A DNA stretch of 55,448 nt, from the IMG/VR virus record IMGVR_UViG_3300027747_000926, positions 1-55,448 of that record; one strand, 5' to 3'. This document shows, in pieces, positions 1-55,448 of the stretch. The DNA comes from a virus. Taxonomy: Duplodnaviria > Caudoviricetes. Numbering within the stretch: the first letter of the stretch is position 1; each line of letters begins with the position of its first letter. Under the pieces are notes generated by a model. That model saw nothing but the letters and a program-made list of their open reading frames with translations. It made no database searches and was not told the DNA's origin. A program made the translations under genes and the position numbers.

Positions 1-141
1 AACACATAGAGGGCTCGGAAGTTCTGAGATGCACCCTTCATGTTGAAGTTAACTGTCAATTCTTTGACGTATTTTGCAGCTTTCTCATCAGCCCAACCAT
101 TCTTAATAAGGACTTTAAACATAGCTAGGCGAGGCGCAGTT
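1..141. repeat. Terminal overlap, left copy (circular contig)
   Basis: Matches 55308-55448 except T15 vs G55322 (CGA/CGC, synonymous Arg on the minus strand). It lies inside a CDS that reads in frame across the junction. Confidence 0.97.
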
Positions 142-6100: not shown

Positions 6101-6947
6101 CAGCATTTGCCGGGACTTCGGAAACTGTTTTAAGGGTTGCATAATCTTTTGCTGCATCCCTGTCGCCTTTAAATTTATCTAAACCTTCTACATAGTTTGT
6201 TCCCAAAGAACCCAGAACTACGGCAGAGGAATTAGTAGCGGCTCCAAATCCAGCCATACCTACAGCTTCGGCAGTAGCTCCCTTCAGCGCCGTCTTGGTT
6301 GCTATTCCAGTAGCAATACGACCACCTACCCCACCCAAGGGGATTGAAGCGGCCATCGGTGCGGCTTGTTCAGCTAGGAAGTTAACGCCCATACCTGGGT
6401 TATCAATCAGGTAACCAAGCATTGCTTTAGTTGCAGAGTAAGTATCAGGTGCATCGTTACCTAGACGGATGAATTCCTGAATCTTAGGGTCAGAGGCAAT
6501 GTTCTTGTACTCGTTAACACTCTTCTCTAGGATAGGAGCGGTATCAGTTTCCTTGCCAGTAACAGCCTTCTCTAGCTTATTAGCCAAGAAGTCCCAAGTT
6601 ACCATCACGCTCTTGTAACCCTTCTTCAGAGAATCCATAGTAGATGGATCAGCAACAGGCTGTGAAACTGGCTCTACTGGAGCAATAGGTTTACCTGAGA
6701 GATAGGCATCCATCACTGGATCACCAGAGCCTTGCGCCTCAACTGGCTGAGATGGTGTGTTGGCTATGTAAGCATCCATTACTGGATCACCAGAGCCTTT
6801 AACAGGTTGAGGTGTTGGCTCAGGTGGAGGTGCTATACCTCTAGCTGGGGTGACTGGCTTAGGTGCATCGGTAGGAACTGTTCCTGTTTGACCAGCACTT
6901 CTTACCTGTGACCCTGCTTCTGCGGATGTCTTATAGAGTTCGGCCAT
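1..6947 (-). CDS. Giant polyvalent virion/ejection protein, N-terminal part (2723 aa in total, continues at 54083-55448), with a zincin-like metallopeptidase motif and an LPD38-like C-terminus
   Basis: Manual translation from ATG 6947 (MAELYKTSAEAG...) is open and in frame with MFKVLIKNG at position 122 (=55429). Motifs are FHELYGHWGL (about 2450-2477), WNPAWIIPNGWRD and ETAPRLAMFK. It is the last gene of the ejection cluster. Confidence 0.85.
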   Translation of the reverse strand, partial: MAELYKTSAEAGSQVRSAGQTGTVPTDAPKPVTPARGIAPPPEPTPQPVKGSGDPVMDAYIANTPSQPVEAQGSGDPVMDAYLSGKPIAPVEPVSQPVADPSTMDSLKKGYKSVMVTWDFLANKLEKAVTGKETDTAPILEKSVNEYKNIASDPKIQEFIRLGNDAPDTYSATKAMLGYLIDNPGMGVNFLAEQAAPMAASIPLGGVGGRIATGIATKTALKGATAEAVGMAGFGAATNSSAVVLGSLGTNYVEGLDKFKGDRDAAKDYATLKTVSEVPANAVAGLFMGVNPLAKVAGKYPVGSNVGNAVFQAGVQGTGGALGAYQAGEAVGDPAGRGELIAEMLGEAAFAPVELATGSSAIKKPKETIPPKAPSDTTQLEDAKPTDTPSFGMTDQEFFGIQKVKEGSAFLAAMYARSDDSTKAQIQNYVTKTGMKLDLESASKNQSLVSQGEKIINVSPTIAGQFQERLGQFYERTKSRDQAPSTVDISNPPKNPVPIEEQIRLAKDMAVEEQLIAEGKLTSKNLETKKPEAVVQAPSEQINIPPQASNLEQLSQAETRINSQPPTVQNPSPKATRREASTPEDFAAIQEVIDGLSIKVITPKQEVSNNQPEVKHSPAVKQQSTGITPEQKSEYISLFQEKAQSISGLPLNDISNTLKGYAEDLRGYGLTDEEIASTLQGNKNVTDADGNTKSIQYGYDPRENSEPTNRKETDVLGKSGNPNVYVGSTNPAPKDVAPDVKQSESMAKEAKQRAVDNQKKFAAEPFSDTKAAVIIDKATDKKGLGFGAKATLAYSLVNKAGEVVGKVFSTTAKGKDSWYTFKNAKGAIDGAQSFITTKGGTMMQSVGKLGDLQLRKAGKGQDSLDIAVKQNKPKAKPVEKVSPTPVSAKQQKINDEFDRQKKADADKQAAFKKPFKSETGMFADDTGGVMGNLARSGAMGVDASAELKRKENKTAAQSAEAKKKVEEIKSRMDSQVSEKLAELEAVRNEMKSNGAQDSEIDATVGSVEDFLKAQQDELINLTKEQLADDTTYISEPTIEKGDATELPEGNDATQGGLDLENDRQVAALQLADAISKGELNMEEALKQVAQERIGYMYLMDALRRKGIEVTKTQIDLSGRLAVNFRLADYISKGDTALAREQWMKSLDSTLNDLANTPAQLAQFENTLTESEKTFYAGWKKNRENYLNRLANSTEESEVFTSYEDVFPNSLFVHYTLNEMKNPNLLPEPMRSTITDLFSDPVAAWKQDVLDIMNIRPDFKAEVMDNLTPSDKNEVMEFALRKLEADKRAAEMMVKSPAYSQLNQLRFLSPDLYYQYQADIRLADERELSAILHEASEMNDRAEAAIAAGADPTNTIDYQMSRIMMQDEGWSINPEELARLNEESEANVEAEGEVPLDVAFQDPPRFKRGRYSNVVPSMTIQEFLTRIFSKWDVKPSYTVLSSSRMLPTDVAERFTSVLEHGNFKGAIDPKTGHIYLFSEMMESVQDAEFVMFHELYGHWGLKAFLGEKLNSFLENQYKLNKKVRELADASFAEAQNNNQPMTRLESIEEAISDLAAKGDGNTFREIIGKLAQWLRENGFNAVAEWIDSTGDSQLAYVLGQAKKAAKTNGISPMNGAPESVKYAYNKPAVEIFATRDGQTTGYARINPIQSNWTVFTKNDKGEWGAIAVDDYAQAKALLDKVGKPFRATDRSSRQEVNPDQVLQIPAFNDVKGWSKRLRDSVIAFQNQYLPVMEVAKFLSKNGKENTVVDDLVLYEGRTAPLIEGMRKEFQEPLEKILKSIGDKGGSVEQADRFLLARHAPERNEQIHKINPKNPSGSGMSTKLAKELMSSNSDGLWTSYREDLDKLGSLMDRMSANHVAYMVKTGLINEATGNALNNYDNYVNLSGNNELKLDEYDKTNLGPNGFNFKGKEVKTATGRGTEPVDIIQNTMNAYLSTLIRGQKAIVQRSILAMFESNPDATYVQINPIVEKKKLNLEKLISDRKILKAIGDKPTEASGHQFLDKLKQELKDGVKDGDAAQLELLKRISDAEKRRDITPAEAIAANRKVTEEAVMSGRLSPDGYVSMVEDANLLRDPNVLIARRDGVPIVMRFTDRGQEFVKSISGGRETRSDLVNAVGAWNRLFSQMVTSWNPAWIIPNGWRDAQLAFSNAAADPEIGPAMAKEMLKNWYPSLSTAFRYLVADQADTKSGFMGKYLNSQKKKKPIDPEEAKIYQRYLDAGAQTYFLDRKGVEASLEKLNRHMYGPQGVLENVQDKLEGVGDLMELMSMPMETAPRLAMFKVLIKNGWADEKAAKYVKELTVNFNMKGASQNFRALYV

Positions 6948-29289: not shown

Positions 29290-31419
29290 CTATAGAGCGT
29301 CATACGCCATGAGTTCATCTTGTAATGCCTGTGTATACGGCCCAATTGGTCCGCCATCAGCCATCTTGATTGGTTGCATCGTGTTTGCTGCTTGCCCACC
29401 AGCGGGTTCACCCGAGGGTAATTGGGCTTGTGGTGCTGGAGGTTGCGGCGCTTGTGACATCGCTTGCTGTGGTTGGGCTTGCTGTGATAATTGCTCTACC
29501 ATTTGCTGTGCTAAGGCTTGTGCCTTTGATTGAATTTGCATTTGCTGAAGGCTATCATCCGATGGGACAATTTTTTCAGTATCCATTTGCAGACCCCTGG
29601 CTACCTCACGCAAGATGTATGCGCGCCCCTCTGTTCCAACAATCTGAGAATCAAGAGGATTGGCAGTAGCTATAAGGAATTCATTACGGCGTAACTGGAG
29701 AGCTTCTTTTTGAATTAAGCCGATTGCGCCTTTGGCAACCACTTTGAAATCACCCTTAATGTAAGGGTCATCGTCGTACATCATATTGTGCAGATATAGT
29801 CTCTGTACAATACCAGATACTATTTTATCAATGTTTGCTACTCCTTGCTTGATACCCTTACTGGCATTGTCCATAAGCATAGATAAACCACTTGCAGTGC
29901 GTCCAGCTCCGCTTACAGCACTACTACCGTATACATAATTAGGTATACCAGTAATCTCATCAGCCTGTTTTGCAAACTGTGCATAGACACCCATCAAGAC
30001 ATCGGCATTCATATTGGGCTGGAAGAAGCGAACAGCAGGTTGTCCACCACCAGTACGATCAGTAGTGACTTGCCAAATCTTCCAAGGATAGATCTGAGTT
30101 AAGTCTTCACCATCAGGCAATCGGTCTACTGTGACTTCGACCTGTGGACCTGAAGCAATACCCATGTTGTTAGCTAATGACCGAGCCGCTGCGTTACACA
30201 TTGTTTGTGAATCACGCATAACCTCAGGCAAGGCTACACCCCAAAAACTATGGGGAACTTCTTCCCAGCTACTAATATTATATGGACGAGCGCCCAATGG
30301 ATCAGGGTTAATAATGCAACGGAATAAGACATTGGCTGTCATCCAAGCTGTGACCTCATACTCCTGGTCTTCCTGAATCATTTTGTCTTTCATGCCCCAC
30401 TGCAATAACCACTCACCACGCACAGAACCCCAGAACTCAATAGCTTCAATCAGGTCATTATGCAAAGGCCCACGGAAGGGCTTTCCCTCAAGCACACGGC
30501 GCTCATTGTCACCTTGCTGGAATGATGTATACCCTGTCTTTCCATAGCGTTCTAAGAGCGTTTCAACGGCTTCATCATCGGTGCCTTCAATTCCCTTCAT
30601 AGAAGACAATGCTTCACGGGTGAACTTATGGCGCTGGATTAAGAAGCCATCATTTACATCAACCGAAGAAGGGGCTGGGAAAATATCATAAGGAGATACG
30701 CGCTCTACCTCACGAACAAACTCTGTGACTACAATAGGCTCAAAGTTAGGACCCCATTGCAAAGCTTTGCGACGCTTAACTACTGGACCCTTAATGATTG
30801 CCGTTGGAAATGTAACGAAATCAGTAATGTAATTCTTGAGTTCTTCAGTAAACTTTCCTTGATTAAGTTGGTCTTGAATCTTATCTGCCATACGACGAGC
30901 GGCATCGACTGATTCTTGTTGCAACTTTTTCATGATTGCTTCATGAACTTCTTCCATGCGGGCGCGAAATGCCTCAGGATGGAGCTGTTGTCCCTGGGAG
31001 ATATACTCCATTGCCTCTTGTTTAACTAGGTCAATGATTGCCATCTTCATCTCAGCTGGTAATACTGGGCTACTAGCTGGGTCTAATTCAAAGACACGCT
31101 CTTGTTGACTGAGCATCACGTCTTTAATCCACGCTTCAGCTGCCCTACACTTCACATCAGTCACCATCATGAAGATGTCAGAGCCACCAGTCTTAGTAAT
31201 CTCAGACATTTTATCGGGGTCATATTCCCCACGGCGCTGGCGTTCACACTTTAATAAACGCTCAGTGATCTGATTCTTAGCAGTTCTAGCCTGATCCCAA
31301 CACTTTTTTACATAGGCCGATAGGTTTGTCTCAAGCAATAGGTTCTCTTGACCATTACTATCCTCTTTAACGTCTACTTCTACTGCGGGTTTTTTATACG
31401 TATAACTCATTAAGTCCAT
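29290..31419 (-). CDS. Portal protein
   Basis: 709 aa following TerL; PHSFWGVALPEVMRDSQ, DEITGIP and RTASGLSML podovirus portal patterns. Confidence 0.9.
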   Translation of the reverse strand: MDLMSYTYKKPAVEVDVKEDSNGQENLLLETNLSAYVKKCWDQARTAKNQITERLLKCERQRRGEYDPDKMSEITKTGGSDIFMMVTDVKCRAAEAWIKDVMLSQQERVFELDPASSPVLPAEMKMAIIDLVKQEAMEYISQGQQLHPEAFRARMEEVHEAIMKKLQQESVDAARRMADKIQDQLNQGKFTEELKNYITDFVTFPTAIIKGPVVKRRKALQWGPNFEPIVVTEFVREVERVSPYDIFPAPSSVDVNDGFLIQRHKFTREALSSMKGIEGTDDEAVETLLERYGKTGYTSFQQGDNERRVLEGKPFRGPLHNDLIEAIEFWGSVRGEWLLQWGMKDKMIQEDQEYEVTAWMTANVLFRCIINPDPLGARPYNISSWEEVPHSFWGVALPEVMRDSQTMCNAAARSLANNMGIASGPQVEVTVDRLPDGEDLTQIYPWKIWQVTTDRTGGGQPAVRFFQPNMNADVLMGVYAQFAKQADEITGIPNYVYGSSAVSGAGRTASGLSMLMDNASKGIKQGVANIDKIVSGIVQRLYLHNMMYDDDPYIKGDFKVVAKGAIGLIQKEALQLRRNEFLIATANPLDSQIVGTEGRAYILREVARGLQMDTEKIVPSDDSLQQMQIQSKAQALAQQMVEQLSQQAQPQQAMSQAPQPPAPQAQLPSGEPAGGQAANTMQPIKMADGGPIGPYTQALQDELMAYDAL

Positions 31420-32837
31420 CCATTCGCGGATTTTTTAACCAATTGCCTAGCCCTTGGAGGGGTTAAGCCGCTTCTGACCCGTAAGCATGCGTACTGCAAA
31501 GCATCTTGAATATGTGACGACATGTCTTTAACGGGTCTGTCTTTAAATCTTGCAGCGCCTGCTACTTTTAAACGCTCATATTTATATCTGCCAGAGAAGC
31601 CTTTTCTCAGGTTGGTGCATCGTGGGTTTAATGCAAATGCAGGGTCGCCGTCTGCCAACTTAGTCAGAAAGAAGGCTACCGATTCTCTACGTGGAATAAA
31701 GTCATTGGTTGGCGCTGGTTCTGTGGTGATTCCAGCTTCCAATAATTCTTGAAGACAGGTTCTTTCATCAGTTTGCGCCCTAATGTTTCCAGCTGGGTCG
31801 CCTGCTGAATACCATGTAAATCCACTGTACTTGTTTACTAGATGTGGCTTAACCATCTCATTAGTAAACTGTCTAATACCCATATCTTCAGAAATAATTT
31901 CATCAAGAATGATGATCTTGCCCCTGGCGGTAACCTGAAGGATTACACATGCTGGGGTTAATCCAAAGTCCCAGCCCAATACAATCGGTAGACCACGCTC
32001 TGCTTCCACATTCTTTGGAAGACAGTGAACTTTGTCGTTGTACTCTGGATAAACAGGCTTACCTGTGGAGGTTGACCCGTAATTTCCTAGAAGGAAGACG
32101 TTAATCCAGTCATCCGTCTTGGACGCTAACTGACGTAAGTAGTAATTGTGTCCGTCAGGCAGATTAATAATGTTCTCTGCGTCAGGATTGGGTTTATATT
32201 CCTCGCCTTCGCGATATAAGCCACCCGGCTGGCGGAAAAACAACCAGTCCTCAGGCTTTTCTTCCTCGGCTACCTTGTAATACCAGTGATCATCATCGGG
32301 AGGATTGGTGTCAAGGATGATCCCAGACCAGCTAGGGCCACCTTGCAGCTTGGAAGGGTAGCGACCGACACGCTGAGTAACCATATCGAATATTTCTTTA
32401 GGGATTTCAGATGCTTCATTAATCCATGCTCCAGTAAGTTCCAAAGATCTCAATTTCCCCGTTTCAGTGGGTCGATCGAGCGCCATAAATAACACTTCTA
32501 ATTCCATTCCAGTACCATCGCCAATGTCATTGATCTTCATCGTGGAAGTAATGGGCGTATCCCACTTAATCGGGGCTACGTTAGATGGAAACCAAGTTTC
32601 CCAAGTCTTAATCGTGGTCGATTTCAACTCAGGATAGGTATTACGAATGATCAGCCAGCGGCTTTTACGTATGCCATCGTTAGCTGGTCTTTGTCTTAGC
32701 GCCCTACCAACGATTTCTACACAGCAAGAGGAGGATTTTCCAGAGCCAACAGGCCCCATTAGTCCTCTAACGAAGTTATCAGCGATATGAAACTCTCTTG
32801 CGACTGGTCCAGGTGGTGAGTATTTGACTAATTCCAC
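31410..32837 (-). CDS. terL: Terminase large subunit
   Basis: Walker A GPVGSGKS, Walker B AWINE, nuclease motifs LGWDFG and HIQDALQY. Confidence 0.95.
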   Translation of the reverse strand: MELVKYSPPGPVAREFHIADNFVRGLMGPVGSGKSSSCCVEIVGRALRQRPANDGIRKSRWLIIRNTYPELKSTTIKTWETWFPSNVAPIKWDTPITSTMKINDIGDGTGMELEVLFMALDRPTETGKLRSLELTGAWINEASEIPKEIFDMVTQRVGRYPSKLQGGPSWSGIILDTNPPDDDHWYYKVAEEEKPEDWLFFRQPGGLYREGEEYKPNPDAENIINLPDGHNYYLRQLASKTDDWINVFLLGNYGSTSTGKPVYPEYNDKVHCLPKNVEAERGLPIVLGWDFGLTPACVILQVTARGKIIILDEIISEDMGIRQFTNEMVKPHLVNKYSGFTWYSAGDPAGNIRAQTDERTCLQELLEAGITTEPAPTNDFIPRRESVAFFLTKLADGDPAFALNPRCTNLRKGFSGRYKYERLKVAGAARFKDRPVKDMSSHIQDALQYACLRVRSGLTPPRARQLVKKSANGWT

Positions 32838-33076: not shown

Positions 33077-33326
33077 TGTGTTCCTCTGCTTTATCGAACG
33101 CCTGCAAGATGGCTTTTGCCAATCTCATGCAGTCATCATGGGTTTTGAAATCGTTTAGATTGATTTCGGATTCAAAGTAATGCGGTTCTCCGTGGATATG
33201 GATTGCTCCCGTTAACAGCATGAGCTGAGGTGCGATCTGTTTAGATAAACCTTCTGGGTAAACCACAGAAATTCCACGTAATGATTCAAATTGATTTAAA
33301 AACTTCTCTAGTTCTTTGCCTGTCAT
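33060..33326 (-). CDS. Hypothetical protein
   Basis: 88 aa, overlaps the terS start. Confidence 0.55.
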   Translation of the reverse strand: MTGKELEKFLNQFESLRGISVVYPEGLSKQIAPQLMLLTGAIHIHGEPHYFESEINLNDFKTHDDCMRLAKAILQAFDKAEEHNGRTN

Positions 33327-33339
33327 AGCTTTTCTTAGT

Positions 33340-33414
33340 TGGTTGCGGGGGGTGGGGTCGAACCACCGACATCTGGGTTATGAGTCCAGCGCTCTTCCAC
33401 TGAGCTACCCCGCG
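33340..33414 (-). tRNA. tRNA-Met(CAT) with initiator-like acceptor stem and encoded CCA
   Basis: CGCGGGG TA GCTC AGTGGAA GAGC G CTGGA CTCATAA CCCAG ATGTC GGTGG TTCGACC CCACC CCCCGCA A CCA folds as a 75-nt cloverleaf. Confidence 0.92.
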
Positions 33415-33418
33415 ATTG

Positions 33419-33673
33419 TTAACATTTCCAGCGTTTTAGTGCAGCTGCTTTACGAGTTGGTTTACCGTTCTCATCTTTCATGGGGCCGGGCATGCCACCC
33501 ATCCGAGCGCAGAATGAATCCCGCCTTGGACCACCCTCAGGTTGTGGTGCTTTTAGGTTAGATCCAGTAGCGGCGTTGTATTTCGCTCGACCCTTGGCGG
33601 TAAGCCCAGCACCCTTGGATACGGGAAGCTTCTCGCCACGACCTACAGATAGGTTTACTTTTTTAGTTGCCAT
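33419..33673 (-). CDS. Small basic phage protein (DUF6321-like)
   Basis: GLTAKGRAKYN...RRDSFCARM...AALKRWKC. Confidence 0.7.
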   Translation of the reverse strand: MATKKVNLSVGRGEKLPVSKGAGLTAKGRAKYNAATGSNLKAPQPEGGPRRDSFCARMGGMPGPMKDENGKPTRKAAALKRWKC

Positions 33674-33689
33674 GATCTCTCTTTGTTAT

Positions 33690-34228
33690 CAGCAGATTGG
33701 TTGACAATATGTAGGGTAATCTGCACTTTGGTTGACAGTTTTGTACAGAATGAGAAACAAACTGCACTTTGGTTGACATGGCTTATAAATAAGTCATTAA
33801 GTAGATAATGAGTTATTAATGAATCATTCTTAAGCTGTTAACATACTTTTTTACGATTAACATACAGCGTGTTATAGGAATGTTATGTAGGTTTATCCTT
33901 TTTACATAACCTTACAAAATACCCCGATCGGGAATATTTTTATACATTTGCCTACTTTTTCATCAAAATTGCCCGTTCGGGAAACTTTTTTATTTACTTT
34001 GTTATCGTCGCCAAATTTACTTGGCTAGTGTCAGCTGACCTTTTGCCCAATCGCCCGGCAACTCAATAGTTATATGGCGCAATCATGCAAACATGAGACA
34101 TCGTTGTCCGAAATTTGTATATCTTTTTCAACCTATAAGTAACAAATTTGTTAACAATCTAATACCTATAGGTTGTAAAACTTTACAAAAAAATATTTTC
34201 ACTTTACAAACACACCCCCATAGGGGAA
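33690..34228. repeat. Non-coding array of multiple distinct palindromes and short repeats
   Basis: CTGCACTTTGGTTGACA x2, AATGANTCATT-like x3, CCCGWTCGGGAA x2, ACCTATA x2, ACTTTACAAA x2 and several single palindromes (see findings). Confidence 0.8.
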
Positions 34229-34231
34229 AAA

Positions 34232-34402
34232 TTATTGGTCCAGCGTAGTACTAGCCAATACAACCTGCGGCGAAGTTTGCTCAACGATCTTTAAAGTGAG
34301 CTTACTAGGAGCCGCACCACTCAAAGTTAAGCGTCTCTCTAGCAAAGTAATACGCGCTTCTAATGTAGCGATACGTATCAATAGCGATTCGTTATTAGTC
34401 AT
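34232..34402 (-). CDS. Small coiled-coil protein (56 aa, not in ORF track)
   Basis: MTNNESLLIRIATLEARITLLERRLTLSG... with a heptad pattern; RBS is weak. Confidence 0.5.
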   Translation of the reverse strand: MTNNESLLIRIATLEARITLLERRLTLSGAAPSKLTLKIVEQTSPQVVLASTTLDQ

Positions 34403-34658
34403 ATATGAATGTGATGAGTTAGGTAAAAAAATTAGATTGAAGACCCGTGTGTGTGAAGGTAATACAGTGGAGCCTCAACCCCCCAGTGTTGCACTTCGTG
34501 GTCCCGTGCCACCCCTGTTAACTATCAGGGTTCTAACCACTAAAGACAGTTCAACTGATCGGTAATCCGTAGCTCAACCCTGTATCTATTAGGTCAGAAG
34601 GCTATCTGTGACTAGCTTGTGACTTTCCTTCGATAACTTCTCCCTCAGTTTGGGTATC

Positions 34659-34698
34659 AGCGTGTCCCTCTTTTCTTCCTACGGAAGGGGACAGCGCT
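34659..34698 (+). promoter_or_regulatory. Bulged hairpin element H1 upstream of the first early gene
   Basis: TGTCCC-tctttt-CTTCC-tac-GGAAG-GGGACA. Confidence 0.6.
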
Positions 34699-34759
34699 TA
34701 TGTGGTGTTGATCAACTCTTTCATTTCATTGACTTTTTTCCCACTGACTAGGAGCAAAC

Positions 34760-34900
34760 ATGCCTACTTATCAAGAGTATCTATATCACGCAGCTAAACA
34801 GGGTTTTCAACCTTGGTCTGAACCTACCTTCAATGCATTACTTAAAGCTCGGTTTAACCCGATTACTTCTGAATACATCAGAGGAGGTAAACATGCTTGA
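34760..34900 (+). CDS. Small early protein (46 aa)
   Basis: AGGAG RBS; MPTYQEYLYHAAKQGFQPWSEPTFNALLKARFNP... Confidence 0.65.
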   Translation: MPTYQEYLYHAAKQGFQPWSEPTFNALLKARFNPITSEYIRGGKHA

Positions 34901-34976
34901 GCTTATCTCTCACGTATTCATCGTTGTATCTGCTGTAACTGCTGTTGTTGCTTTGTATCTCTCTAAGGATTTCTAA
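34893..34976 (+). CDS. 27-aa single-TM peptide
   Basis: GGAGG RBS; MLELISHVFIVVSAVTAVVALYLSKDF. Confidence 0.55.
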   Translation: MLELISHVFIVVSAVTAVVALYLSKDF

Positions 34977-34990
34977 GTCCTTTAACCAAC

Positions 34991-35030
34991 GGTTATTTCC
35001 CTCTCTCCTTCTACGAAGGGGGAAACAACC
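34991..35030 (+). promoter_or_regulatory. Bulged hairpin element H2
   Basis: TTTCCC-tctct-CCTTC-tac-GAAGG-GGGAAA, preceded by AACCAACG. Confidence 0.6.
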
Positions 35031-35078
35031 TCTTCTTTCTTTTTTAACTACGTCTTACCTTTTACTAGGAGAATTACT

Positions 35079-35414
35079 ATGTCTACTATCACTGCTAAAC
35101 CTGCTTCACCTGCTCAAATCAAACGTATTGGCTATGCCGTTGAGTATGGTCTCTTGCCTGCCGACTTTGTTGTTCCTGGCGATTCTTACGCTTGCTCAGG
35201 GATTATCGGCAACTTACCCGCTAGTAAGCGTGACAAACAAGCGTTGATTGACGCTGGTGGTTCTGTTAAACCCAAGATGACAGCACGTGAATGTGAACGT
35301 GCCATGTTGGTTATTAAGTCTGTGAATGCTATCGATGCTTCAGGTGTTAAATCTGAGGCTGTGATTGCAGCTATCCAAGAACTTCGTAAAGAGTTCTTCC
35401 GTAAGCAGTCTTAA
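35079..35414 (+). CDS. Early hypothetical protein
   Basis: AGGAG RBS, 111 aa, two PAS-x-x-Q/D modules. Confidence 0.75.
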   Translation: MSTITAKPASPAQIKRIGYAVEYGLLPADFVVPGDSYACSGIIGNLPASKRDKQALIDAGGSVKPKMTARECERAMLVIKSVNAIDASGVKSEAVIAAIQELRKEFFRKQS

Positions 35415-38003: not shown

Positions 38004-39503
38004 ATGTCCAGTAAATTGTATTTTTATGCAAGAAAACGGGTGTATCGAGATGATATGGGTGGCAATGAGTTCGTCCGTATCCTCGTAAAGCGTGTCCTTA
38101 AATCAGTAGCTCGGTCTACTGGCGGTAGGATTCACACCAACCGTTGGCTCAGGTTAATCAATGAACTAGCAGCTGCTCACCCAACAGATGGTGAAGGTCA
38201 GAAGTTTATGGAAAACCTGACAGCCTATGTCATGTCATTTAAAAAGACTCATCCATTAACAGTGGTTCGGATGGCCTTGATGCTTGACATTATTAAAGGT
38301 CGTGTATTTACCCGTGAAAATGATTCGTTTGATTACGGCGCATTACTTCAGTCTCACTTAACCTTGTTTGAAACAGTCAATGATGTATCTTGGATTGATT
38401 CTGTTGGCGTAAAAATGGGCATAGATAGAGCTGGTTGCGGTCACTTTGCTATGGTAACTAACACGTTGTTTGGCGATGATGACAGCGTTACTGCTAGATC
38501 TACTGTATGTTCGCATTGTACAAACCAATTAATAGATGATGGCACTCGTCAAATGGCTAGTGATAGCACGCTAATACTATCTAAGTATGCAGTATCTTAT
38601 CTAGATCCAAGCAATCATATACGTATCGCTGATCGACGCAGGGATTACCTTCGTCAGTTAGATGATGGCCGCTGGGTTCACATTGACTGGACTCCATATC
38701 GCGGCCTGGTTGCTGGCTACCACAGTAGCAAGTCTAAAGGGTTTGACGTCATTGATAGCCCTTGGTTTAGACAGAATCGCCGTGCCTTTGGTCTTGAGTT
38801 AGAAGTTCAGGTGACATCTGGCTCTGCAAACTTAGATGCAATGGCTGGCCGGGTTCATGATCTGTTTAATCCTAACGGTGCAGTTGGTGAGTACTGCTTC
38901 TTCGAGCGTGATGGTTCTATTGGTCATGGCTTTGAGATTGTTACTCAACCAGCAGGCATGGACATACACCGAGATAAGTTTGCATTGTTCTTAAACAATC
39001 CTGAAACTAAAAAAGGTATGCGTTCTCATGAAGGTGGTAGCTGTGGTTTGCACATACACGTAGGTAGACAGTACCTTACGCAAGCTCAGATCTTTAGAGT
39101 TCAATCCTTTCTCAACGATGTCAGAAACGAAGGGATTATTCGTATGATTGCCCGTCGTTATGGTGCTGGTTATTGCAGGGTTAAACCTGAGATGGCTAAG
39201 TTCACACCTTACAACAAGCAAAACGGAGATCGTTACGAGATGCTGAACATTCAGAACAGAGATACCGTTGAGTTTCGTATCTTCAGGGGTTCACTGCGTT
39301 ATGAATCTGTGATGGCAGCTCTTGAGTTCTGTAATGCGCTGCTTACTTTCTGTCAGCCAGGTGAGGTGTCATTCACCCAGTTCAATGCTGTTGGTTTTAA
39401 GACTTACATTCAGAGTCAATCAATGAAGCAAGACACTAAGTTCTTGCGTAGTTATTTACGCATGAGTGAAGACACCGACAACGAAAGGCAGGTTGCTGCA
39501 TGA
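38004..39503 (+). CDS. Putative amidoligase (COOH-NH2 ligase fold) with long N-terminal extension
   Basis: FGLELEV, ERDGSI...FEIVTQP, CGLHIHVG, RYEMLN and TVEFRIFRG. Confidence 0.88.
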   Translation: MSSKLYFYARKRVYRDDMGGNEFVRILVKRVLKSVARSTGGRIHTNRWLRLINELAAAHPTDGEGQKFMENLTAYVMSFKKTHPLTVVRMALMLDIIKGRVFTRENDSFDYGALLQSHLTLFETVNDVSWIDSVGVKMGIDRAGCGHFAMVTNTLFGDDDSVTARSTVCSHCTNQLIDDGTRQMASDSTLILSKYAVSYLDPSNHIRIADRRRDYLRQLDDGRWVHIDWTPYRGLVAGYHSSKSKGFDVIDSPWFRQNRRAFGLELEVQVTSGSANLDAMAGRVHDLFNPNGAVGEYCFFERDGSIGHGFEIVTQPAGMDIHRDKFALFLNNPETKKGMRSHEGGSCGLHIHVGRQYLTQAQIFRVQSFLNDVRNEGIIRMIARRYGAGYCRVKPEMAKFTPYNKQNGDRYEMLNIQNRDTVEFRIFRGSLRYESVMAALEFCNALLTFCQPGEVSFTQFNAVGFKTYIQSQSMKQDTKFLRSYLRMSEDTDNERQVAA

Positions 39504-39624
39504 GTATCAGAACAGATGCAAAAGTTTGGACAAATCTCACCGAGGCTGAGGCTTCATCTCTCATCAGTTGTTTAGTGGCTAATCGTATTAGCTATGCTAT
39601 TTTAAATTAAGAAAGGTAATAATT

Positions 39625-40656
39625 ATGTGTATATTAATTCACCATCCAGTAGGTTCTGTATTAACTGACGCTCACTTTGAGGACTTCTATGATCGTAATC
39701 CTGATGGTTTTGGCGCCATTGTTAACAACGCTCATGGTGTAAATGTCATCAAGCATGTCGGTACATTAGAAGAAGTTCAACAGTTATATCGTGACCACGT
39801 TATGGGTTTTGATGCGGTTATCCATATGCGCTGGCGTACTCACGGCGATGTCAATCTAGATAACTGCCACCCTTATGAGGTTGTTCCTGGCATGTGGATG
39901 TCTCACAATGGGATACTTAGTACGGGTAATGCAGCTGATCAAACTCGATCTGATACTTGGCATTACATTCAGAACTATCTGCGACCTTTGCTGCTAGAAA
40001 ATCCAGAGCTTATTCATATACCAGCATTTCAGGCTTATGTTGGTAGCCATATTGGTTACAACAATAAGTTTGGCTTTATGACAGAGGATGGTCGTAGCGT
40101 CATCATCAATCGCAGTGCTGGTATCGAGCATGAAGGTGTGTGGTTTTCTAATACCTATGCTTGGACTCCTCATAAGTTTGGCTACAGAACAGCGTATCAG
40201 TATGGTTCATCACCTAATTATGCTACGCAAACTACGTATGCCAAGCCTACCACCCAAGCTGGTTTTGACTTTACCAAGCCAGCCAAATACCAAAAGCCTA
40301 AAGCTAAATCCAAGACAGCTAAGAAAGCTACTACCAAGAAATCTATAGCCAATGCTATAGGAAAGATCAGTGAAGATTCTTACAAGAGAATCATTCGATC
40401 TTGCTTTAATGAGATTGAGTTGGATGGATTTCACGGCGCCTTGCGCTGGTGTACTGACAATCCAATGAAAGCTATGCACTTTATCTATAACGGTATGCCT
40501 AGCGAAAATCCTCAGGAAGTTTCTGACATGGTAAATGAGACGCCTGATTTAGCTGCCGACCACATCATGGAGATCTGGGATATGTATGGCGAGGACTTAG
40601 CTGAGATGGCTGGCATTCAACAATCTTTTACAGGAGTTAATTACTATGATATTTAA
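39625..40656 (+). CDS. Class II (Ntn) glutamine amidotransferase
   Basis: Cys2, NPDGFG, HMRWRTHG, NCHPY, HNG and SDT. Confidence 0.9.
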   Translation: MCILIHHPVGSVLTDAHFEDFYDRNPDGFGAIVNNAHGVNVIKHVGTLEEVQQLYRDHVMGFDAVIHMRWRTHGDVNLDNCHPYEVVPGMWMSHNGILSTGNAADQTRSDTWHYIQNYLRPLLLENPELIHIPAFQAYVGSHIGYNNKFGFMTEDGRSVIINRSAGIEHEGVWFSNTYAWTPHKFGYRTAYQYGSSPNYATQTTYAKPTTQAGFDFTKPAKYQKPKAKSKTAKKATTKKSIANAIGKISEDSYKRIIRSCFNEIELDGFHGALRWCTDNPMKAMHFIYNGMPSENPQEVSDMVNETPDLAADHIMEIWDMYGEDLAEMAGIQQSFTGVNYYDI

Positions 40657-45441: not shown

Positions 45442-45805
45442 TTAGTGTAAACCCTTGTTTGCCCTATAGCAATAGGATGTAACAAGTTTTTTATTAGTAA
45501 TTATTAGGGTAAACAGAACCCCCTTTTCCCTTTGGGCGGGGGCATTGACCTGGATGTTTAGTAACAATATGTAACTAGTAATTATGTTTACCTTAGATCC
45601 GAACGTACCTCCCCTATCCTACCTAGAAAGAGAGGTTCGTTCAGCATGGGCTTTACCTTGAGTCCATTAGCACCCGACAGACTTTCACACTAGAGGTTCT
45701 ATCTTCCCCGCCTCTTCTCGCATTACAAGTGTTTATCCCGTGGCTCGAGTAACTACAAGAACTGACGCCACCGTTGTTGTACCCGTCCATCAATTCTTGG
45801 AAAGA

Positions 45806-45983: not shown

Positions 45984-46655
45984 ATGGAGGGTACAAAAAT
46001 GATCGAAAGATATATGGATGAACAGTCATTAGCCGATGCAAAGCGTCTTAAAAAACTATGGCTAGAAAAGAAAGATGAACTTCATCTATCTCAAGTCAAG
46101 GCTGCTAAAGAGTTCGGTTACAGTAGCCAAGGAGCAGTCTCACAATATTTAAATGGTAAGGCCGCATTAAACATGAGTGCGGTTGCTAAGTTTGCTCAAT
46201 TACTAAAGGTCAATGTTGCTGATATTTCTCCACGCTTTGGATCTATGGTTGCCAATCAAAAGCCCACCCCATTAGATAGCTATTGCGCCCCTGCCATAGG
46301 TTCTATTAATGGTCGTAATACCGACATCTGCCTAGACTGGTTTGCGTTCTCCAAAGGATTTCTGAAATCAATTAACTCCAATCCTGAGCATATCAAAACA
46401 GTGCGCCTAGACGATGGATCATTTAATGAATACCCAACTGGTACTTTGTTGATGGTAGATGACAGCCACCAATCATCCCCTAAGGATGGAGTCTATCTAA
46501 TGGAAATGAATGGCGGAATTGTGGCGCGCAGAATTCATGTGGTGTCAGATGTCATCACCATTTCTGGTGGGAAGAAAGATATCAAGGTCAGCGCAGATAC
46601 ATTTGAAATGCTACGTATATTAGCTAAAGTGATCTTAGTGTTAACCCCAGTATAA
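45984..46655 (+). CDS. cI: Lambda CI-like repressor (HTH plus degenerate S24 domain)
   Basis: DAKRLKKLWLEKKDELHLSQ...SQGAVSQYLNGKAALN parallels the lambda CI N-domain; the C-terminus is S24-like. Confidence 0.85.
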   Translation: MEGTKMIERYMDEQSLADAKRLKKLWLEKKDELHLSQVKAAKEFGYSSQGAVSQYLNGKAALNMSAVAKFAQLLKVNVADISPRFGSMVANQKPTPLDSYCAPAIGSINGRNTDICLDWFAFSKGFLKSINSNPEHIKTVRLDDGSFNEYPTGTLLMVDDSHQSSPKDGVYLMEMNGGIVARRIHVVSDVITISGGKKDIKVSADTFEMLRILAKVILVLTPV

Positions 46656-51672: not shown

Positions 51673-52746
51673 ATGAATATGTATAAGCGAGGTGATGTAT
51701 GGAATGCTTCTTGGTATGTAGATGGCAAGCGGTTTCGATACAGTTCAAAGACATCGGATAAGAATGAGGCGAGAGAGTTTTTCGCCAACCTGTATGCCAA
51801 GTCTTTGGATGTGCGTGGCATGGACAGTAAAGTCAGGCGCACGTGGATCGAAGCGGCAACTCGGTATATTGAAGAGCATCAGCATTTGAAGTCGATCGAT
51901 ACGTATGAGCATCAGTTTGCGTGGTGGAGTCAAGCATTTCACGCCGAGCGGATTGTGTACTTAGATCAGATTTCACCTGATGTAGTCAAAGATATTCGAG
52001 ATAAGGAGTTACAACGCCCTCTCTCACGTTGCAAGGACAAGCGTCGTAGTCCTGGTGATGTGAATAACAAGTTGTCTTTCTTGCGTGCAGTAGTGAATGC
52101 AGCTTGTCGTGAGTATCGCTGGATAGATGTGGCGCCTTTGTATCGGTTCTTACCGCATAACGGAGAGCGTCGCAGATGGTTAACTCCTACCGAACTCAAT
52201 CGTTTGTTACAAGCTTTGCCTGAACCCTACAGTTCGATGGCGGAGTTCTCGGTAGCAACGGGTTTACGACAGGCAAATGTTTTGGGTTTGCGCTGGGGTG
52301 ATATTGATCTTCAGAACAGGACTGCGACATTTAAGGATAAGGTCATGAAGAACGGAGAACCCTTCTCCATTCCTTTAAACCAAACTGCATTGACTGTACT
52401 GCGTCGCTGGTTAGGCAAGCATGAAGAGTTGGTCTTCCAAAGAAGTGATGGCAAGGAAGCAAAAGGTGTGCCATCAAAGACCTGGAGTACGGCAATTGCA
52501 AAGGCGGGAATTGATAATTTCCACTGGCATGACCTGAGACATACCTGGGCCAGTTTGCTGCGGCAGTCTGGCAAAGTAGATCTCAGTTTGTTGCAAGAGC
52601 TAGGTGGCTGGAAGAGTGCAAAGATGGTGCAGCGGTATGCCCATTTGTCAGTTGAACATCTGTCTTCTTCGGCGGACATTCTAGACAGTGTATTATCTGT
52701 GTCTGGACAAAAACCGCAGTTGGTTCAGATACAATCGAGCGCTTAG
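51673..52746 (+). CDS. int: Tyrosine integrase
   Basis: TGLR, K, HDLRH, GGW and RYAH catalytic residues; N-terminal arm-binding domain. Confidence 0.96.
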   Translation: MNMYKRGDVWNASWYVDGKRFRYSSKTSDKNEAREFFANLYAKSLDVRGMDSKVRRTWIEAATRYIEEHQHLKSIDTYEHQFAWWSQAFHAERIVYLDQISPDVVKDIRDKELQRPLSRCKDKRRSPGDVNNKLSFLRAVVNAACREYRWIDVAPLYRFLPHNGERRRWLTPTELNRLLQALPEPYSSMAEFSVATGLRQANVLGLRWGDIDLQNRTATFKDKVMKNGEPFSIPLNQTALTVLRRWLGKHEELVFQRSDGKEAKGVPSKTWSTAIAKAGIDNFHWHDLRHTWASLLRQSGKVDLSLLQELGGWKSAKMVQRYAHLSVEHLSSSADILDSVLSVSGQKPQLVQIQSSA

Positions 52747-53826: not shown

Positions 53827-54138
53827 ATGACAGCATTAACTGACGCTTATGCAAAGGCGCGCATCGAAGGACAGATGGCAGAAGACGAAGCTAAAGTCAC
53901 CATATCTCACATGAAAGTAGATCAACTACGTGAGGAATGGGTTAGCTTGATGGGGATGGTTGCGTACTACTCGAAACTGGAACGGTTGCTGTACTCCAAC
54001 CCCCGTAGCCAGTTCGATAAAGCAAGGGAATACTTAGAACTTATTGAAAAGAACCCTGATAACTGGGAAGCTATACAAGGTCTTATTCTTCTAGTTCAGG
54101 GGATGGTTGACTACGAGCCAAGCGACCAATCTTATTAA
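53827..54138 (+). CDS. Hypothetical protein
   Basis: 103 aa, convergent with and overlapping the end of the giant gene. Confidence 0.55.
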   Translation: MTALTDAYAKARIEGQMAEDEAKVTISHMKVDQLREEWVSLMGMVAYYSKLERLLYSNPRSQFDKAREYLELIEKNPDNWEAIQGLILLVQGMVDYEPSDQSY

Positions 54139-55448
54139 GGTTAGATCCGTCTGTGCCGTTAGAGATAATGGCATCACGGAAACCAGCCCTTAATGCGGCA
54201 TTGACCACTCGGTTCTGAATCAACTTCTCCTGCTCTGCCACCTTATTTCTGGCGGCAGTCTTGTAATCATCTGTGTATCTTGGGTTAGATTCAATAGCTT
54301 GTAGACCGATACGCATCTGTTTAATCATCTGATCTGCACCTGAGATGATGGCTTTTGCCCCGCCCAGATTAGGATGTTCAGTCATGATCTCTCTACGTCT
54401 TGCCTCAGATGTAGCTGGTGACATCATTTCACGGTACTTAGTCTGCACAACCTCAGCGGCATTGCGCATAGCTCCAGCATCGTAGCCCTCAGGGATTTTG
54501 GCTGTTAGGCGATCAACTAGTGGGATTGCCATATCCTTAGTCTTCTCACCTCTAGCTGCTTGAATCGTTATTCCCGCGCCCTTATAGAGTTCTGAGAATA
54601 GTCCAGGCAAGTAGGACTGTATGAAGTAATCTGCCTTGCTAGGGTTGATGTCTAAGATTCCACTACTGTATTGGCTACCTCCAGTAGCTGAGTTCAATCC
54701 TCTGAATACCCCAACTGAGATTGGATTGGCAGTCTTAAAGTTCATGTAAGCCTGAGCCTCTTTGACATCACTAAAGGCGCTATCACCCTTAGATATTGGG
54801 CCACCAAAGCGGTTCTCATTAGCGCCTAACTCATAGATAGGAACCAACGGTGAAGGCAGTATGGTTTTTAGTAAGGCGCCAGTCGTTGTCTTAGACTCAG
54901 CACCTGAGCCTACTGGGGCAAAAGAATCAAAGGCGACTGAGAGTACTCTGCCAGCAGCTTCTTCCGCTTTGAGCTTACCGCCCCATACATCAGCTAAGTA
55001 GTGACCCATAGCAAATGGTACGTTCCATCCATAGGCAATAGGGATAGCGCCGCCAGGAACATCAGGGGCAAATATCAAAGCAGTAGCTCTCTTGTAGTTT
55101 GGAATCATGTCTAGCTTATCAATGCCAGGCTTATCATCATCCTCGCCGCCGATAGCCCTAGCCATCATGTTGCCCATCATGCCAAGTACCATCCATACGC
55201 CAGCAGTAGCGGCAAACTGGTTGCTAGGTAAGAACTTAGCAATGCCCTCCTCACCCCGACTGTAGTTCTGGAACATACGGAAAGTACCTTGGATTGCTGG
55301 GTTAGCAAACACATAGAGGGCGCGGAAGTTCTGAGATGCACCCTTCATGTTGAAGTTAACTGTCAATTCTTTGACGTATTTTGCAGCTTTCTCATCAGCC
55401 CAACCATTCTTAATAAGGACTTTAAACATAGCTAGGCGAGGCGCAGTT
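54083..55448 (-). CDS. C-terminal part of the giant polyvalent protein (LPD38-like region)
   Basis: LTVNFNMKG, LYVFANPAIQG, IPIAYGWNVPF and NENRFGGPI; in frame with 1-6947 across the overlap. Confidence 0.85.
   Translation of the reverse strand, partial: TAPRLAMFKVLIKNGWADEKAAKYVKELTVNFNMKGASQNFRALYVFANPAIQGTFRMFQNYSRGEEGIAKFLPSNQFAATAGVWMVLGMMGNMMARAIGGEDDDKPGIDKLDMIPNYKRATALIFAPDVPGGAIPIAYGWNVPFAMGHYLADVWGGKLKAEEAAGRVLSVAFDSFAPVGSGAESKTTTGALLKTILPSPLVPIYELGANENRFGGPISKGDSAFSDVKEAQAYMNFKTANPISVGVFRGLNSATGGSQYSSGILDINPSKADYFIQSYLPGLFSELYKGAGITIQAARGEKTKDMAIPLVDRLTAKIPEGYDAGAMRNAAEVVQTKYREMMSPATSEARRREIMTEHPNLGGAKAIISGADQMIKQMRIGLQAIESNPRYTDDYKTAARNKVAEQEKLIQNRVVNAALRAGFRDAIISNGTDGSNLNKIGRLARSQPSPELEE
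55308..55448. repeat. Terminal overlap, right copy
   Basis: 140/141 identical to positions 1-141. Confidence 0.97.

Follow-up and report, generated by a model that had tools for sequence, protein, structure and literature searches.

A mobile non-coding module of freshwater phages carries a putative HipB-type operator pair without hipBA genes

Positions 33674-34231 of a temperate tailed-phage genome (IMG/VR record IMGVR_UViG_3300027747_000926; the whole 55,448-bp stretch of DNA analysed is called the window below) contain no ORF of 60 aa or longer; shorter ORFs of 38, 41 and 51 aa (33663-33779 on the minus strand, 33683-33808 and 34093-34248 on the plus strand) overlap them. The original prediction, made from the letters alone, had described this region as a catalogue of unrelated operator-like palindromes captured from hosts and acting as a DNA decoy array. 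We found that the stretch is one copy of a mobile, modular non-coding element exchanged among freshwater phages. One of its cassettes can be assigned with confidence, by comparison with bacterial loci, as a HipB-type operator pair that has the native geometry and lacks the genes; we are equally confident that the phages carrying the module encode no cognate binder. Tentatively, we favour the reading that the orphan pair acts as a sink for the host HipB/HipA complex on phage DNA.

A putative HipB-type operator pair without its genes

The pair, cassette E and the best conserved part of the module, consists of the boxes CCCGATCGGGAA and CCCGTTCGGGAA, 49 nt apart:

33921-33934, strand not applicable: cassette E box 1, ACCCCGATCGGGAA, HipB(Y4mF)-type operator by sequence; inner 10 bp and right half-site perfect, left outer half-site AC instead of TT
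33970-33983, strand not applicable: cassette E box 2, TGCCCGTTCGGGAA, HipB(Y4mF)-type operator by sequence; 49 nt start-to-start from box 1

Both boxes carry the 14-bp dyad TTCCCG-NN-CGGGAA with the inner 10 bp perfect. Sequence and spacing match operators that bracket the promoters of Y4mF-type hipB-hipA genes in many phyla. A search for CCCGTTCGGGAA-N30-45-CCCGTTCGGG with one genome per bacterial and archaeal species detected at least 120 bacterial loci distributed over many phyla. Among the loci listed, 104 span 58-62 nt; an ORF with the Y4mF/HipB signature starts beside the pair in 79 of them, and a HipA kinase signature is found within 2.2 kb in 48. The HipB signature accompanies only one of the 16 listed loci with other spans. 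The span is 59-60 nt in 87 of the 126 bacterial matches listed and 59 nt in the window (box starts 33923 and 33972). Genes beside the pair match TIGR03070, the Y4mF-family antitoxin, with 69-85 bits (two of three above the curated cut-off of 71.65), and TIGR03071, the HipA N-terminal domain, is matched as well.

The same association was observed in a sample of 401 genomes from the order holding an Oxalobacteraceae genome. The pair was present in 14 of these genomes and the reversed control in none; boxes with AT and TT centres both occur in this order, and three boxes 50 nt apart are common. Among 12 loci fetched from it, HipB is encoded beside the boxes in 11 (E <= 2e-27) and HipA in 10. By reading, the bacterial dyads bracket a sigma-70-type promoter, one dyad located upstream of the -35 element and the other abutting the -10 element (e.g. 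TTGCG-17-TATAAT in L244 and L247). Between the boxes of the window we could read only weak -35/-10-like hexamers, and a consensus scan listed no promoter there.

A weight matrix was built from 90 hipB-adjacent bacterial operator pairs (180 boxes), with the consensus AATTTTCCCG(A/T)TCGGGAAAATT. The boxes of the window score 19.9 bits (box 1) and 21.7 bits (box 2), while the next best site in the phage genome scores -4.8. Bacterial boxes have a minimum of 13.4, a 5th percentile of 21.4 and a median of 28.5 bits. The window boxes score low because each has an outer half-site without the TT, which is conserved at 93-98% in bacteria. Our literature search found no paper that prints the box motif. 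Multiple regularly spaced palindromic operators are described as typical of hipBA in Shewanella and, by comparison, in E. coli (PMC4150777); palindromic operators bound by HipB, and degradation of HipB by Lon, are described in PMC8262856.

Sister modules in other phages contain a second dyad, GTGTA-N6-TACAC, with conserved arms and variable centres. It was found in 13 of 101 module zones (138 kb), whereas the 817 kb that served as background in these loci gave three matches and spacing controls gave 0 and 1; the window does not contain it. The E. coli HipB operator is TATCC-N8-GGATA, present in four copies; this type was absent from the module zones, as was ACCT-N3/N4-AGGT. A link of ACCT-N2-AGGT to MqsA-type operators was considered and dropped. 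GTGTA-N6-TACAC is given as the consensus of the Shewanella HipB operator in PMC4150777.

Genes for a cognate regulator were searched for in the phages themselves. Hidden Markov models of HipB and HipA, made from the bacterial neighbours, gave no match at E <= 0.01 among 22,776 six-frame ORFs of the window and L001-L216 (39 matches in the positive control). In five phage genomes with a completeness rating of 100%, TIGR03070 and PF07804 had no match even when the threshold was relaxed to E <= 1. The generic pair pattern has at least 122 viral loci, and among those listed hipB and hipA stand beside the pair in a single one (L410). All six frames are closed in 91 of the listed loci, so the element is widespread, with at least 91 non-coding viral loci; the other 31 listed matches lie in open frames, and most of them, by reading, are coincidental matches within a single conserved coding family. 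In this family (L338, L340, L348, L353, L359, L362 and others) CCCGTTCGGGAA and CCCGTTCGGG occur exactly 60 nt apart within an open frame, which mimics an operator pair.

The module as a mobile mosaic

The 27-nt pattern given by the original prediction for the boxes, CAAAAT-NN-CCCGWTCGGGAA-NN-TTTTT, is present at 33915 and 33964 of the window and in 30 IMG/VR contigs (chance expectation below 1 by a rough estimate). In nearly all of these the pattern is repeated in tandem at a distance of 49 nt, and the flanks are conserved; two contigs lack the second box or are cut before it. The upstream flanks contain the other motifs of the stretch. Positions 33701-34173 of the window align blockwise, with 67-94% identity, to L176-L205. 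The module-bearing contigs are not terminase relatives of the phage; they include four complete genomes (35-67 kb) with one copy each. Nearly all copies retain the inner 10 bp of both boxes and the 49-nt spacing between variable flanks, and three boxes are found in L176, L468 and L490.

The 77 non-redundant non-coding loci fall into 60 architectures, and in 15 loci the box pair is the only cassette. Among 30 loci selected by cassette A alone, 12 have the box pair, in either orientation. Blocks were gained, lost, reordered and inverted between phages, the outcome for which the original prediction had proposed to look, and its description of the stretch as an array of unrelated cassettes holds, as the cassettes assort independently. 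Divergent operons flank the module in the window and in two of the complete genomes (G001 and G002), and genes converge on it in a third (G004); in L187 and L203 the box pair alone lies between convergent acetyltransferase and integrase genes. In other phages the genes adjoining the module are mostly those of exonucleases, HNH endonucleases and a helicase. The five complete module-bearing genomes have no protein family in common; G001-G004 share an HNH homing endonuclease family that has no match in the window.

The other features of the module in the window are as follows:

33674-34231, strand not applicable: whole ORF-free mosaic module, inserted in this terminase lineage with the genes for tRNA-Met and DUF6321 on one side and the terminator-like hairpin of the 56-aa gene on the other
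33687-33706, 33718-33737 and 33759-33778, plus strand: cassette B, three 20-nt direct repeats ending in TTGACA, 31 and 41 nt start-to-start
33781-33835, strand not applicable: cassette C, inverted repeat with 20-nt arms (80% complementary) that holds the AATGAATCATT palindrome (33818-33828) and two degenerate copies
33838-33913, strand not applicable: cassette D, TTAACATAC twice (33838 and 33857; TTAACAT repeats) and the inverted repeat GTTATGTA-N13-TACATAAC (33879-33913)
33992-34032, plus strand: remnant of cassette F, direct repeats ATTTACTTTGTTATCGTC / ATTTACTTGGCTAGTGTC, 23 nt apart
34006-34082, strand not applicable: 77-nt segment with GCCAA-N6-TTGGC, GTCAGCTGAC and TTGCC-N9-GGCAA, missing from one X2 contig
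34084-34124, plus strand: cassette G, conserved block with promoter-like GAGACA (34095-34100), a 17-nt spacer and TATATC (34118-34123)
34131-34173, strand not applicable: cassette A, ACCTATAAGT (34131) and ACCTATAGGT (34164), 33 nt apart, with TAACAAATTTGTTA (34140-34153) between them
34173-34210, strand not applicable: TTGTAAAACTTTACAA dyad and ACTTTACAAA twice (34180 and 34201), inverted copies of the TTGTAAAG cassette
34215-34228, minus strand: CCCCTATGGGGG hairpin, terminator-like, just past the stop codon of the 56-aa gene and forming the right boundary of the module

Most cassettes have counterparts in other modules. The 31-/41-nt spacing of the TTGACA repeats of cassette B recurs in L179 and partly in L178, L196 and L204. 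For cassette C, whose core dyad is AATGAnTCATT, ttattaatgagtcatt-type copies occupy the equivalent relative place in other modules, and a site of this type is also present in the short spacer of two terminase relatives of the phage (L002 and L044). A segment of cassette D, gttatgtaggtttatcctttttacataac, is near-identical in L178. At the place of cassette F other modules read attactttgtt...aaatttactttgttattg, the cassette being made of ATTTACTTTGTT repeats. The block of cassette G is kept in L176, L178, L179, L192, L193 and L196; its dyad GACA-N4-TGTC (34097-34108) covers part of the -35-like hexamer and extends into the spacer. The promoter in this block was read by eye and is absent from the list of the sigma-70 scan. 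Repeats of TTGTAAAG(TT), spaced by 21-22 nt, are grouped with cassette B in other modules. The 77-nt segment is variable in a close variant of the phage: in the DNA run X2 one contig (depth 9.93) joins 34005 to 34083.

Cassette A is a pair of TACCTATAGGTA-type dyads, and its 33-nt spacing is also observed in L178, L179 and L198. It stands to the right of cassette G in the window and to the left of cassette B in most other modules (window positions 34127-34173 align to the left of B in L178). The TACCTATAGGTA dyad is shared with a plasmid-like replicon represented by four metagenome contigs of ~31 kb (L453, L456, L465 and L489), which has seven 22-bp iterons (..TATAGGTACCC..). In this replicon two GGGTACCTATAGGTACCC dyads bracket the TTGACA-18-TATATT promoter of a 380-aa gene, which we read as a Rep-like initiator gene from its position beside the iterons.

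The motifs enumerated in the original prediction are all present where it had placed them. TTGGTTGACA is found at 33697, 33728 and 33769, the last two copies within an exact 17-mer, CTGCACTTTGGTTGACA, that occurs at two loci among viral contigs; TTAACATA occurs twice, GTTATGTA/TACATAAC are inverted at 33882/33903, and GCCAA-N6-TTGGC, GTCAGCTGAC, TTGCC-N9-GGCAA, GACA-N4-TGTC, two copies of ACCTATA with ACCTATAGGT, as well as TAACAAATTTGTTA, TTGTAAA-AC-TTTACAA and two copies of ACTTTACAAA, were all recovered. Of the three copies claimed for AATGANTCATT, only that at 33818 is exact, the sites at 33788 and 33807 being degenerate. In the rest of the 55,448-bp genome the motifs have near matches at chance level and nothing beyond.

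We compared the 558-nt region with 500 dinucleotide-preserving shuffles. Tight palindromes (perfect, arms of at least 5, spacer 0-1) number six vs 1.42 +/- 1.16 expected, a count reached in none of the 500 shuffles; inverted repeats with arms of at least 7 number eight vs 2.23 (reached in 4/500), and direct 10-mers within 100 nt number three vs 0.10 (reached in 0/500). Inverted repeats with 5-bp arms and a spacer of 2-15, the class of GCCAA-N6-TTGGC and TTGCC-N9-GGCAA, are at chance level (12 vs 10.06; 162/500 shuffles), and palindromes with 4-bp arms are at or below it (two vs 4.90; 480/500 shuffles reach two). Thus the excess of tight palindromes and local repeats over shuffles, the lack of which would have counted against the original prediction, is real, whereas about one third of the motifs in its catalogue are expected by chance. 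GACA-N4-TGTC is trivial by the shuffle test; we consider it real because its block is kept in other phages.

Several other functions of these sequences were considered and rejected. The three TTGACA copies were rejected as tandem sigma-70 promoters, as no -10 element follows at 16-18 nt. T/A runs flank both boxes, which could suggest intrinsic (bidirectional) terminators; the box hairpins are weak (3-bp GC stems, -3.8 to -7.8 kcal/mol, z -0.5 to -1.4), their folds are reached by 23-55 of 200 shuffles, and a terminator scan lists none of them, so a terminator role is unlikely given the weakness of the hairpins. The CCCCTATGGGGG hairpin at the right boundary is also a weak fold (-7.1 kcal/mol, z 0.16), with an equivalent in L002 and L005. 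The stops of contigs inside the module were considered as physical genome ends; their positions differ, and we read them as assembly breaks at sequence shared by co-occurring phages, of which divergent contigs were observed.

Relatives of the phage were collected by TerL, the large terminase subunit, and gave 80 loci with 63-88% identity; the 77-aa gene next to TerL is kept in most of them and the 88-aa gene in many. None shows similarity to 33700-34300, even at E <= 0.1, and no similarity to the stretch was found among 80 DUF6321 loci. A fixed, non-modular region in relatives, named by the original prediction as an outcome that would speak against it, was therefore not observed. In the closest relative, L002, only ~100 nt separate the tRNA from the hairpin of the 56-aa gene, while in L005 and L001 an unrelated ORF occupies the position of the module. 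In 27 relatives, 852 to 2148 nt separate the 88-aa gene from the first conserved plus-strand gene, and this spacer contains a few cassette motifs at most. Since no TerL relative has similar sequence, we regard the stretch as an acquisition at an insertion hot spot rather than a fixed site of the lineage. The conservation among terminase-sharing phages that marks cos and pac sites is missing from it, and its absence from the 80 relatives argues against a terminase recognition site; the comparison thus separates the stretch from the packaging site and any other fixed site of its lineage.

Nearby non-coding segments at 34443-34516 and 34640-34812 are conserved in many TerL relatives (up to 92% over 50 nt) and are candidates for the fixed cis site of the lineage (cos/pac or promoter) in place of the stretch. 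Their core reads GATACAG(C)TGGAGCCTCAACCCC...GCACTTCGTGGTCCCGTGCC. Conserved element CE1 (34425-34540) was tried as a structured RNA and found no support (consensus fold -4.03 kcal/mol, covariation term +0.34).

The genes that flank the module are the following:

33340-33414, minus strand: tRNA-Met, left flank, at the head of the packaging operon
33419-33673, minus strand: DUF6321 gene, 84 aa, left flank, first gene of the operon
34232-34402, minus strand: conserved 56-aa gene, coiled-coil-like by reading, right flank of the module

The minus-strand packaging and structural operon starts at 33673 and includes DUF6321, tRNA-Met, the 88-aa and 77-aa genes, TerL (31410-32837) and an SU10-type portal gene. 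The tRNA-Met is found at the same locus in 24 of 27 relatives, some of which have a tRNA-Asn or tRNA-Trp in addition. Its acceptor stem has a C-A mismatch at the first base pair, which we take to be a feature of initiator tRNAs. The DUF6321 gene is carried by none of the 80 TerL relatives; its protein is 83-92% identical in 80 IMG/VR loci out of at least 597 relatives, and cyanophages carry it too, so that it appears as a very promiscuous and highly conserved small phage gene. The 56-aa gene gave no family match; it has 58-60% identity in L002, L003, L004 and L006 (tblastn), and the copy in L005 is colinear (hand translation). The ~540 nt to its right hold no convincing genes; the plus-strand genes begin at ~34945 or 35079. 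The stretch had been placed at the early/late divergence: it does lie upstream of the packaging and structural operon, but the conserved minus-strand 56-aa gene intervenes before the plus-strand genes begin. In the plus-strand operon further right (38004-40656) we noted a gene with an Amidoligase_2 domain (499 aa) and a weakly GATase-like gene (343 aa).

The window, 55,448 bp, is the entire assembly. A giant minus-strand ORF of ~2,770 aa spans the contig ends (3-6947 and 54083-55447), and the start of the record is therefore arbitrary. The N-terminal part of this ORF (54083-55447) matches the C-terminal ends of PHROG models of giant proteins (~2,800-4,650 positions), a weak match to a DarB-like antirestriction family among them; the larger part (3-6947) has no Pfam match. 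The phage is temperate, with an integrase (51673-52746), a CI-type repressor (45984-46655), Erf, an exonuclease and a primase-helicase; the CI-type switch at ~45.4-46.0 kb is located ~12 kb from the stretch. GC content is 0.39-0.40 in the two 500-nt bins covering 33501-34500 vs ~0.43-0.48 in most of the structural operon to the left. Between 33300 and 35200 no known RNA family other than the tRNA was found, and matches to cultured-phage DNA (INPHARED) are confined to the DUF6321 gene and the tRNA. In the RNA run X3 six short contigs with 100% identity cover flanking genes and 34540-34951 and none covers 33674-34231, to which we give no weight as the library is thin.

The sole hint at a host group is a Betaproteobacteria-1 RNA (RF02932) at 45672-45797 on the minus strand (68.5 bits, E 1.5e-10), located where the primase-helicase operon and the CI-type repressor gene diverge. 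GC content is 51-65% in the hipBA loci sampled from the one bacterial order, and these loci give no pointer to the host of the phage.

How the pair might act

As the pair is of the HipB type, the element is mobile and no binder is encoded by the phages, the boxes are probably bound by host HipB, alone or with HipA. On infection of a host that carries hipBA, HipB, alone or together with the HipA kinase, would bind the phage sites, and as the phage DNA multiplies these sites would turn into a sink for the antitoxin-toxin complex. Such a sink would hold HipA in a DNA-bound inactive state or otherwise disturb HipA-based abortive infection. HipA is presumably inactive in higher-order HipA-HipB complexes on adjacent operators, and properly spaced sites could then trap the kinase. 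The binding of HipB may benefit the phage, and the other cassettes may likewise be protein-binding sites. The action as a sink is the reading that fits best, because the pair is independent of its neighbour genes, a third box occurs occasionally, and a second HipB-type dyad is present in sister modules; we hold it tentatively. Validation of HipA-family kinases in phage defence is reported in PMC13092281, and our observations would tie these kinases to a concrete feature of phage DNA.

Several points weigh against this reading. Titration of HipB could equally free HipA or derepress hipBA and so harm the phage, and the direction of the effect is unpredictable from sequence. The assignment of the boxes as HipB operators comes from adjacency and position in bacterial genomes. 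With 19.9 and 21.7 bits vs the median of 28.5, the window boxes score near the bottom of the range of natural operators, and the 31 open-frame viral matches imply that the bare pattern can arise otherwise. A search of 185,579 bacterial and archaeal genomes gave no match to the box pair with phage-type flanks, and no donor or capture event is therefore documented; cassette G likewise has no exact match in these genomes. For cassette A, 55 metagenome contigs were recovered; almost all of them represent phage modules, and one group carries the autoregulated promoter of a plasmid Rep gene with iterons. Finally, the host searches name no host: TerL gave two loci, in a metagenome-assembled genome (MAG) labelled Actinomycetota (67% identity) and in a Burkholderiales MAG (42%), and the integrase gave 11 loci, all with at most 40% identity.

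The absence of cassette G from bacterial genomes and the near restriction of cassette A to phage modules leave the general notion of a catalogue of host operators unproven; the pattern of cassette A also had no match in five bacterial genomes. Capture of host operators, as originally proposed, is thus borne out for the box pair, which corresponds to a toxin-antitoxin operator pair without genes, and not for cassette G. A wider proposal would see gene-free operator arrays copied from host defence loci as DNA-level decoys against toxin-antitoxin defence, the other dyads being decoys or sensors for further regulators; with the kinase locked on DNA, or autoregulation blinded, abortive infection would fail. 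We regard this generalization as doubtful. If it were true, the free exchange of cassettes would give phages a counter-defence equivalent of the defence island.

Another account of the same boxes, which we consider rather unlikely, is that they form a HipB-responsive switch. Boxes and neighbouring cassettes would then control phage transcription with host HipB, and possibly other regulators, as the signal, and degradation of HipB under stress or toxin-antitoxin activation would release a phage promoter. The bacterial pair does bracket a promoter, and the phage is temperate. By reading, the inter-box spacer in phages keeps a -10-like ATCAAT/CAAAAT beside a box and a TTGATA-/TTGATG-like -35 on the minus strand, and box 1 of canonical modules falls within the 18-nt spacer from TTTACA to TATTTT; cassette G, too, reads as a -35, 17 nt and a -10 with an overlapping dyad. 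The position between divergent operons in the window, G001 and G002 would suit a switch, whereas in the convergent setting (of the G004 type, and of L187 and L203 with the pair alone) a promoter would drive only antisense RNA. The sigma-70 scan of 33300-35200 found only two promoter-like sites, both at 34203-34258, against a mean of 3.0 in shuffles, and no cassette is associated with a fixed downstream gene.

That the module is a neutral recombination patchwork is unlikely. It would consist of PeSL-like mobile cassettes at gene-shuffling junctions, such as those described for T4-type phages (PMC2839356, PMC4122927), and the HipB-type pair would be a relic, a hipBA promoter acquired a single time, spread with the module and without a role in trans. 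Consistent with this, the locus is an insertion hot spot, with a spacer of variable length and with extra ORFs, tRNAs and DUF6321 in different relatives; the cassette order is permuted between phages, many contigs break within the module, and HNH homing endonuclease genes adjoin it in L196, L201 and L202. A relic would not be expected to keep the inner 10 bp and the 49-nt spacing while the flanks vary; this was observed also in loci chosen by another cassette and when the second box was left unconstrained. The third box in some phages and the second HipB-type dyad, with conserved arms and a variable centre, also argue against a relic.

Less likely than the switch and the neutral relic, and in our view very improbable, is a replication origin or packaging site in cis, where an initiator or the small terminase subunit would use the direct repeats, dyads and T-tracts as iterons and bending sites: the three 20-nt direct repeats at 31-/41-nt spacing are in helical phase, as iterons are, with the spacing kept in other modules, where TTGTAAAG repeats at 21-22 nt are also found, the GC content is lowered, the neighbours in other phages are mostly replication and recombination genes, the position is independent of gene orientation and upstream of packaging genes in the window, and the TACCTATAGGTA dyad forms inverted half-iterons in a plasmid Rep promoter, but the stretch is absent from all 80 TerL relatives, most of which share the two small upstream genes, neither a cognate initiator nor any other family is common to the five complete module genomes, the cassettes occur singly and in different orders, and the DnaA-box-like TTTTGCACA is not conserved and, by reading, is missing in the window.

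The approach may be of use for other phage spacers that pass as 'junk': conserved dyad pairs are compared with bacterial genomes and the genes next to the matches are then inspected.

Comparison with known systems

The closest known counterparts of cassette E are hipBA operators. Phage boxes and bacterial boxes share the 14-bp dyad with the core CCCG(A/T)TCGGG flanked by TT/AA, and there are two boxes (three in some phages, as in some bacteria) at 49-50 nt start-to-start. Unlike the bacterial pair, the phage pair is not followed by hipB/hipA, in the window and in 121 of the 122 viral loci listed; each window box has one degenerate outer half-site, the promoter between the boxes is weak or absent, and the pair is embedded among unrelated cassettes. 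Among experimentally studied relatives, the Shewanella oneidensis hipBA operators are four copies of GTGTA-N6-TACAC 34 bp apart; in E. coli the spacer is longer by 2 bp (PMC4150777).

The module resembles the PeSL cassettes of T4-type phages in being made of short conserved non-coding cassettes that are kept between otherwise different phages at junctions of variable gene blocks and are shuffled as modules (PMC2839356, PMC4122927). PeSLs differ in being composite promoter-terminator motifs that flank individual mobile ORFs (PMC2839356, PMC4122927). Here, ~10 different cassettes are stacked in one gene-free 560-nt stretch and one of them appears to be a toxin-antitoxin operator. The module has no detected consensus promoters and its hairpins are weak, so that the PeSL combination of an early promoter and a stem-loop terminator is not found: the two promoter-like sites lie only at its right edge.

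Iteron origins and sites of Rep autoregulation are known from plasmids and lambdoid phages. The likeness consists in direct repeats at helical-phase spacing, inverted half-sites and the TACCTATAGGTA dyad that the module shares with the plasmid-like replicon of L453, L456, L465 and L489. The module differs in having no adjacent or shared cognate initiator gene, and the half-site is not iterated in the window.

Countermeasures of phages that mimic or supply an antitoxin include the pseudo-ToxI RNA. Orphan DarG-like antitoxin enzymes (PMC11825919), as well as TifA and the use of own antitoxins (PMC13728456, an overview of November 2026), belong to the same group. Our literature search found no DNA-site decoy directed against a toxin-antitoxin system, and the available sections of the overview PMC13728456 mention none. 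As in these systems, the phage with the module carries only the 'antitoxin side' of a host system and no toxin. In the known cases a protein or an RNA acts on the toxin, whereas the module would hold nothing except the DNA target of the antitoxin. If the favoured reading is true, a gene-less operator pair would represent a different class of countermeasure or sensor, in which plain DNA sites act via their copy number.

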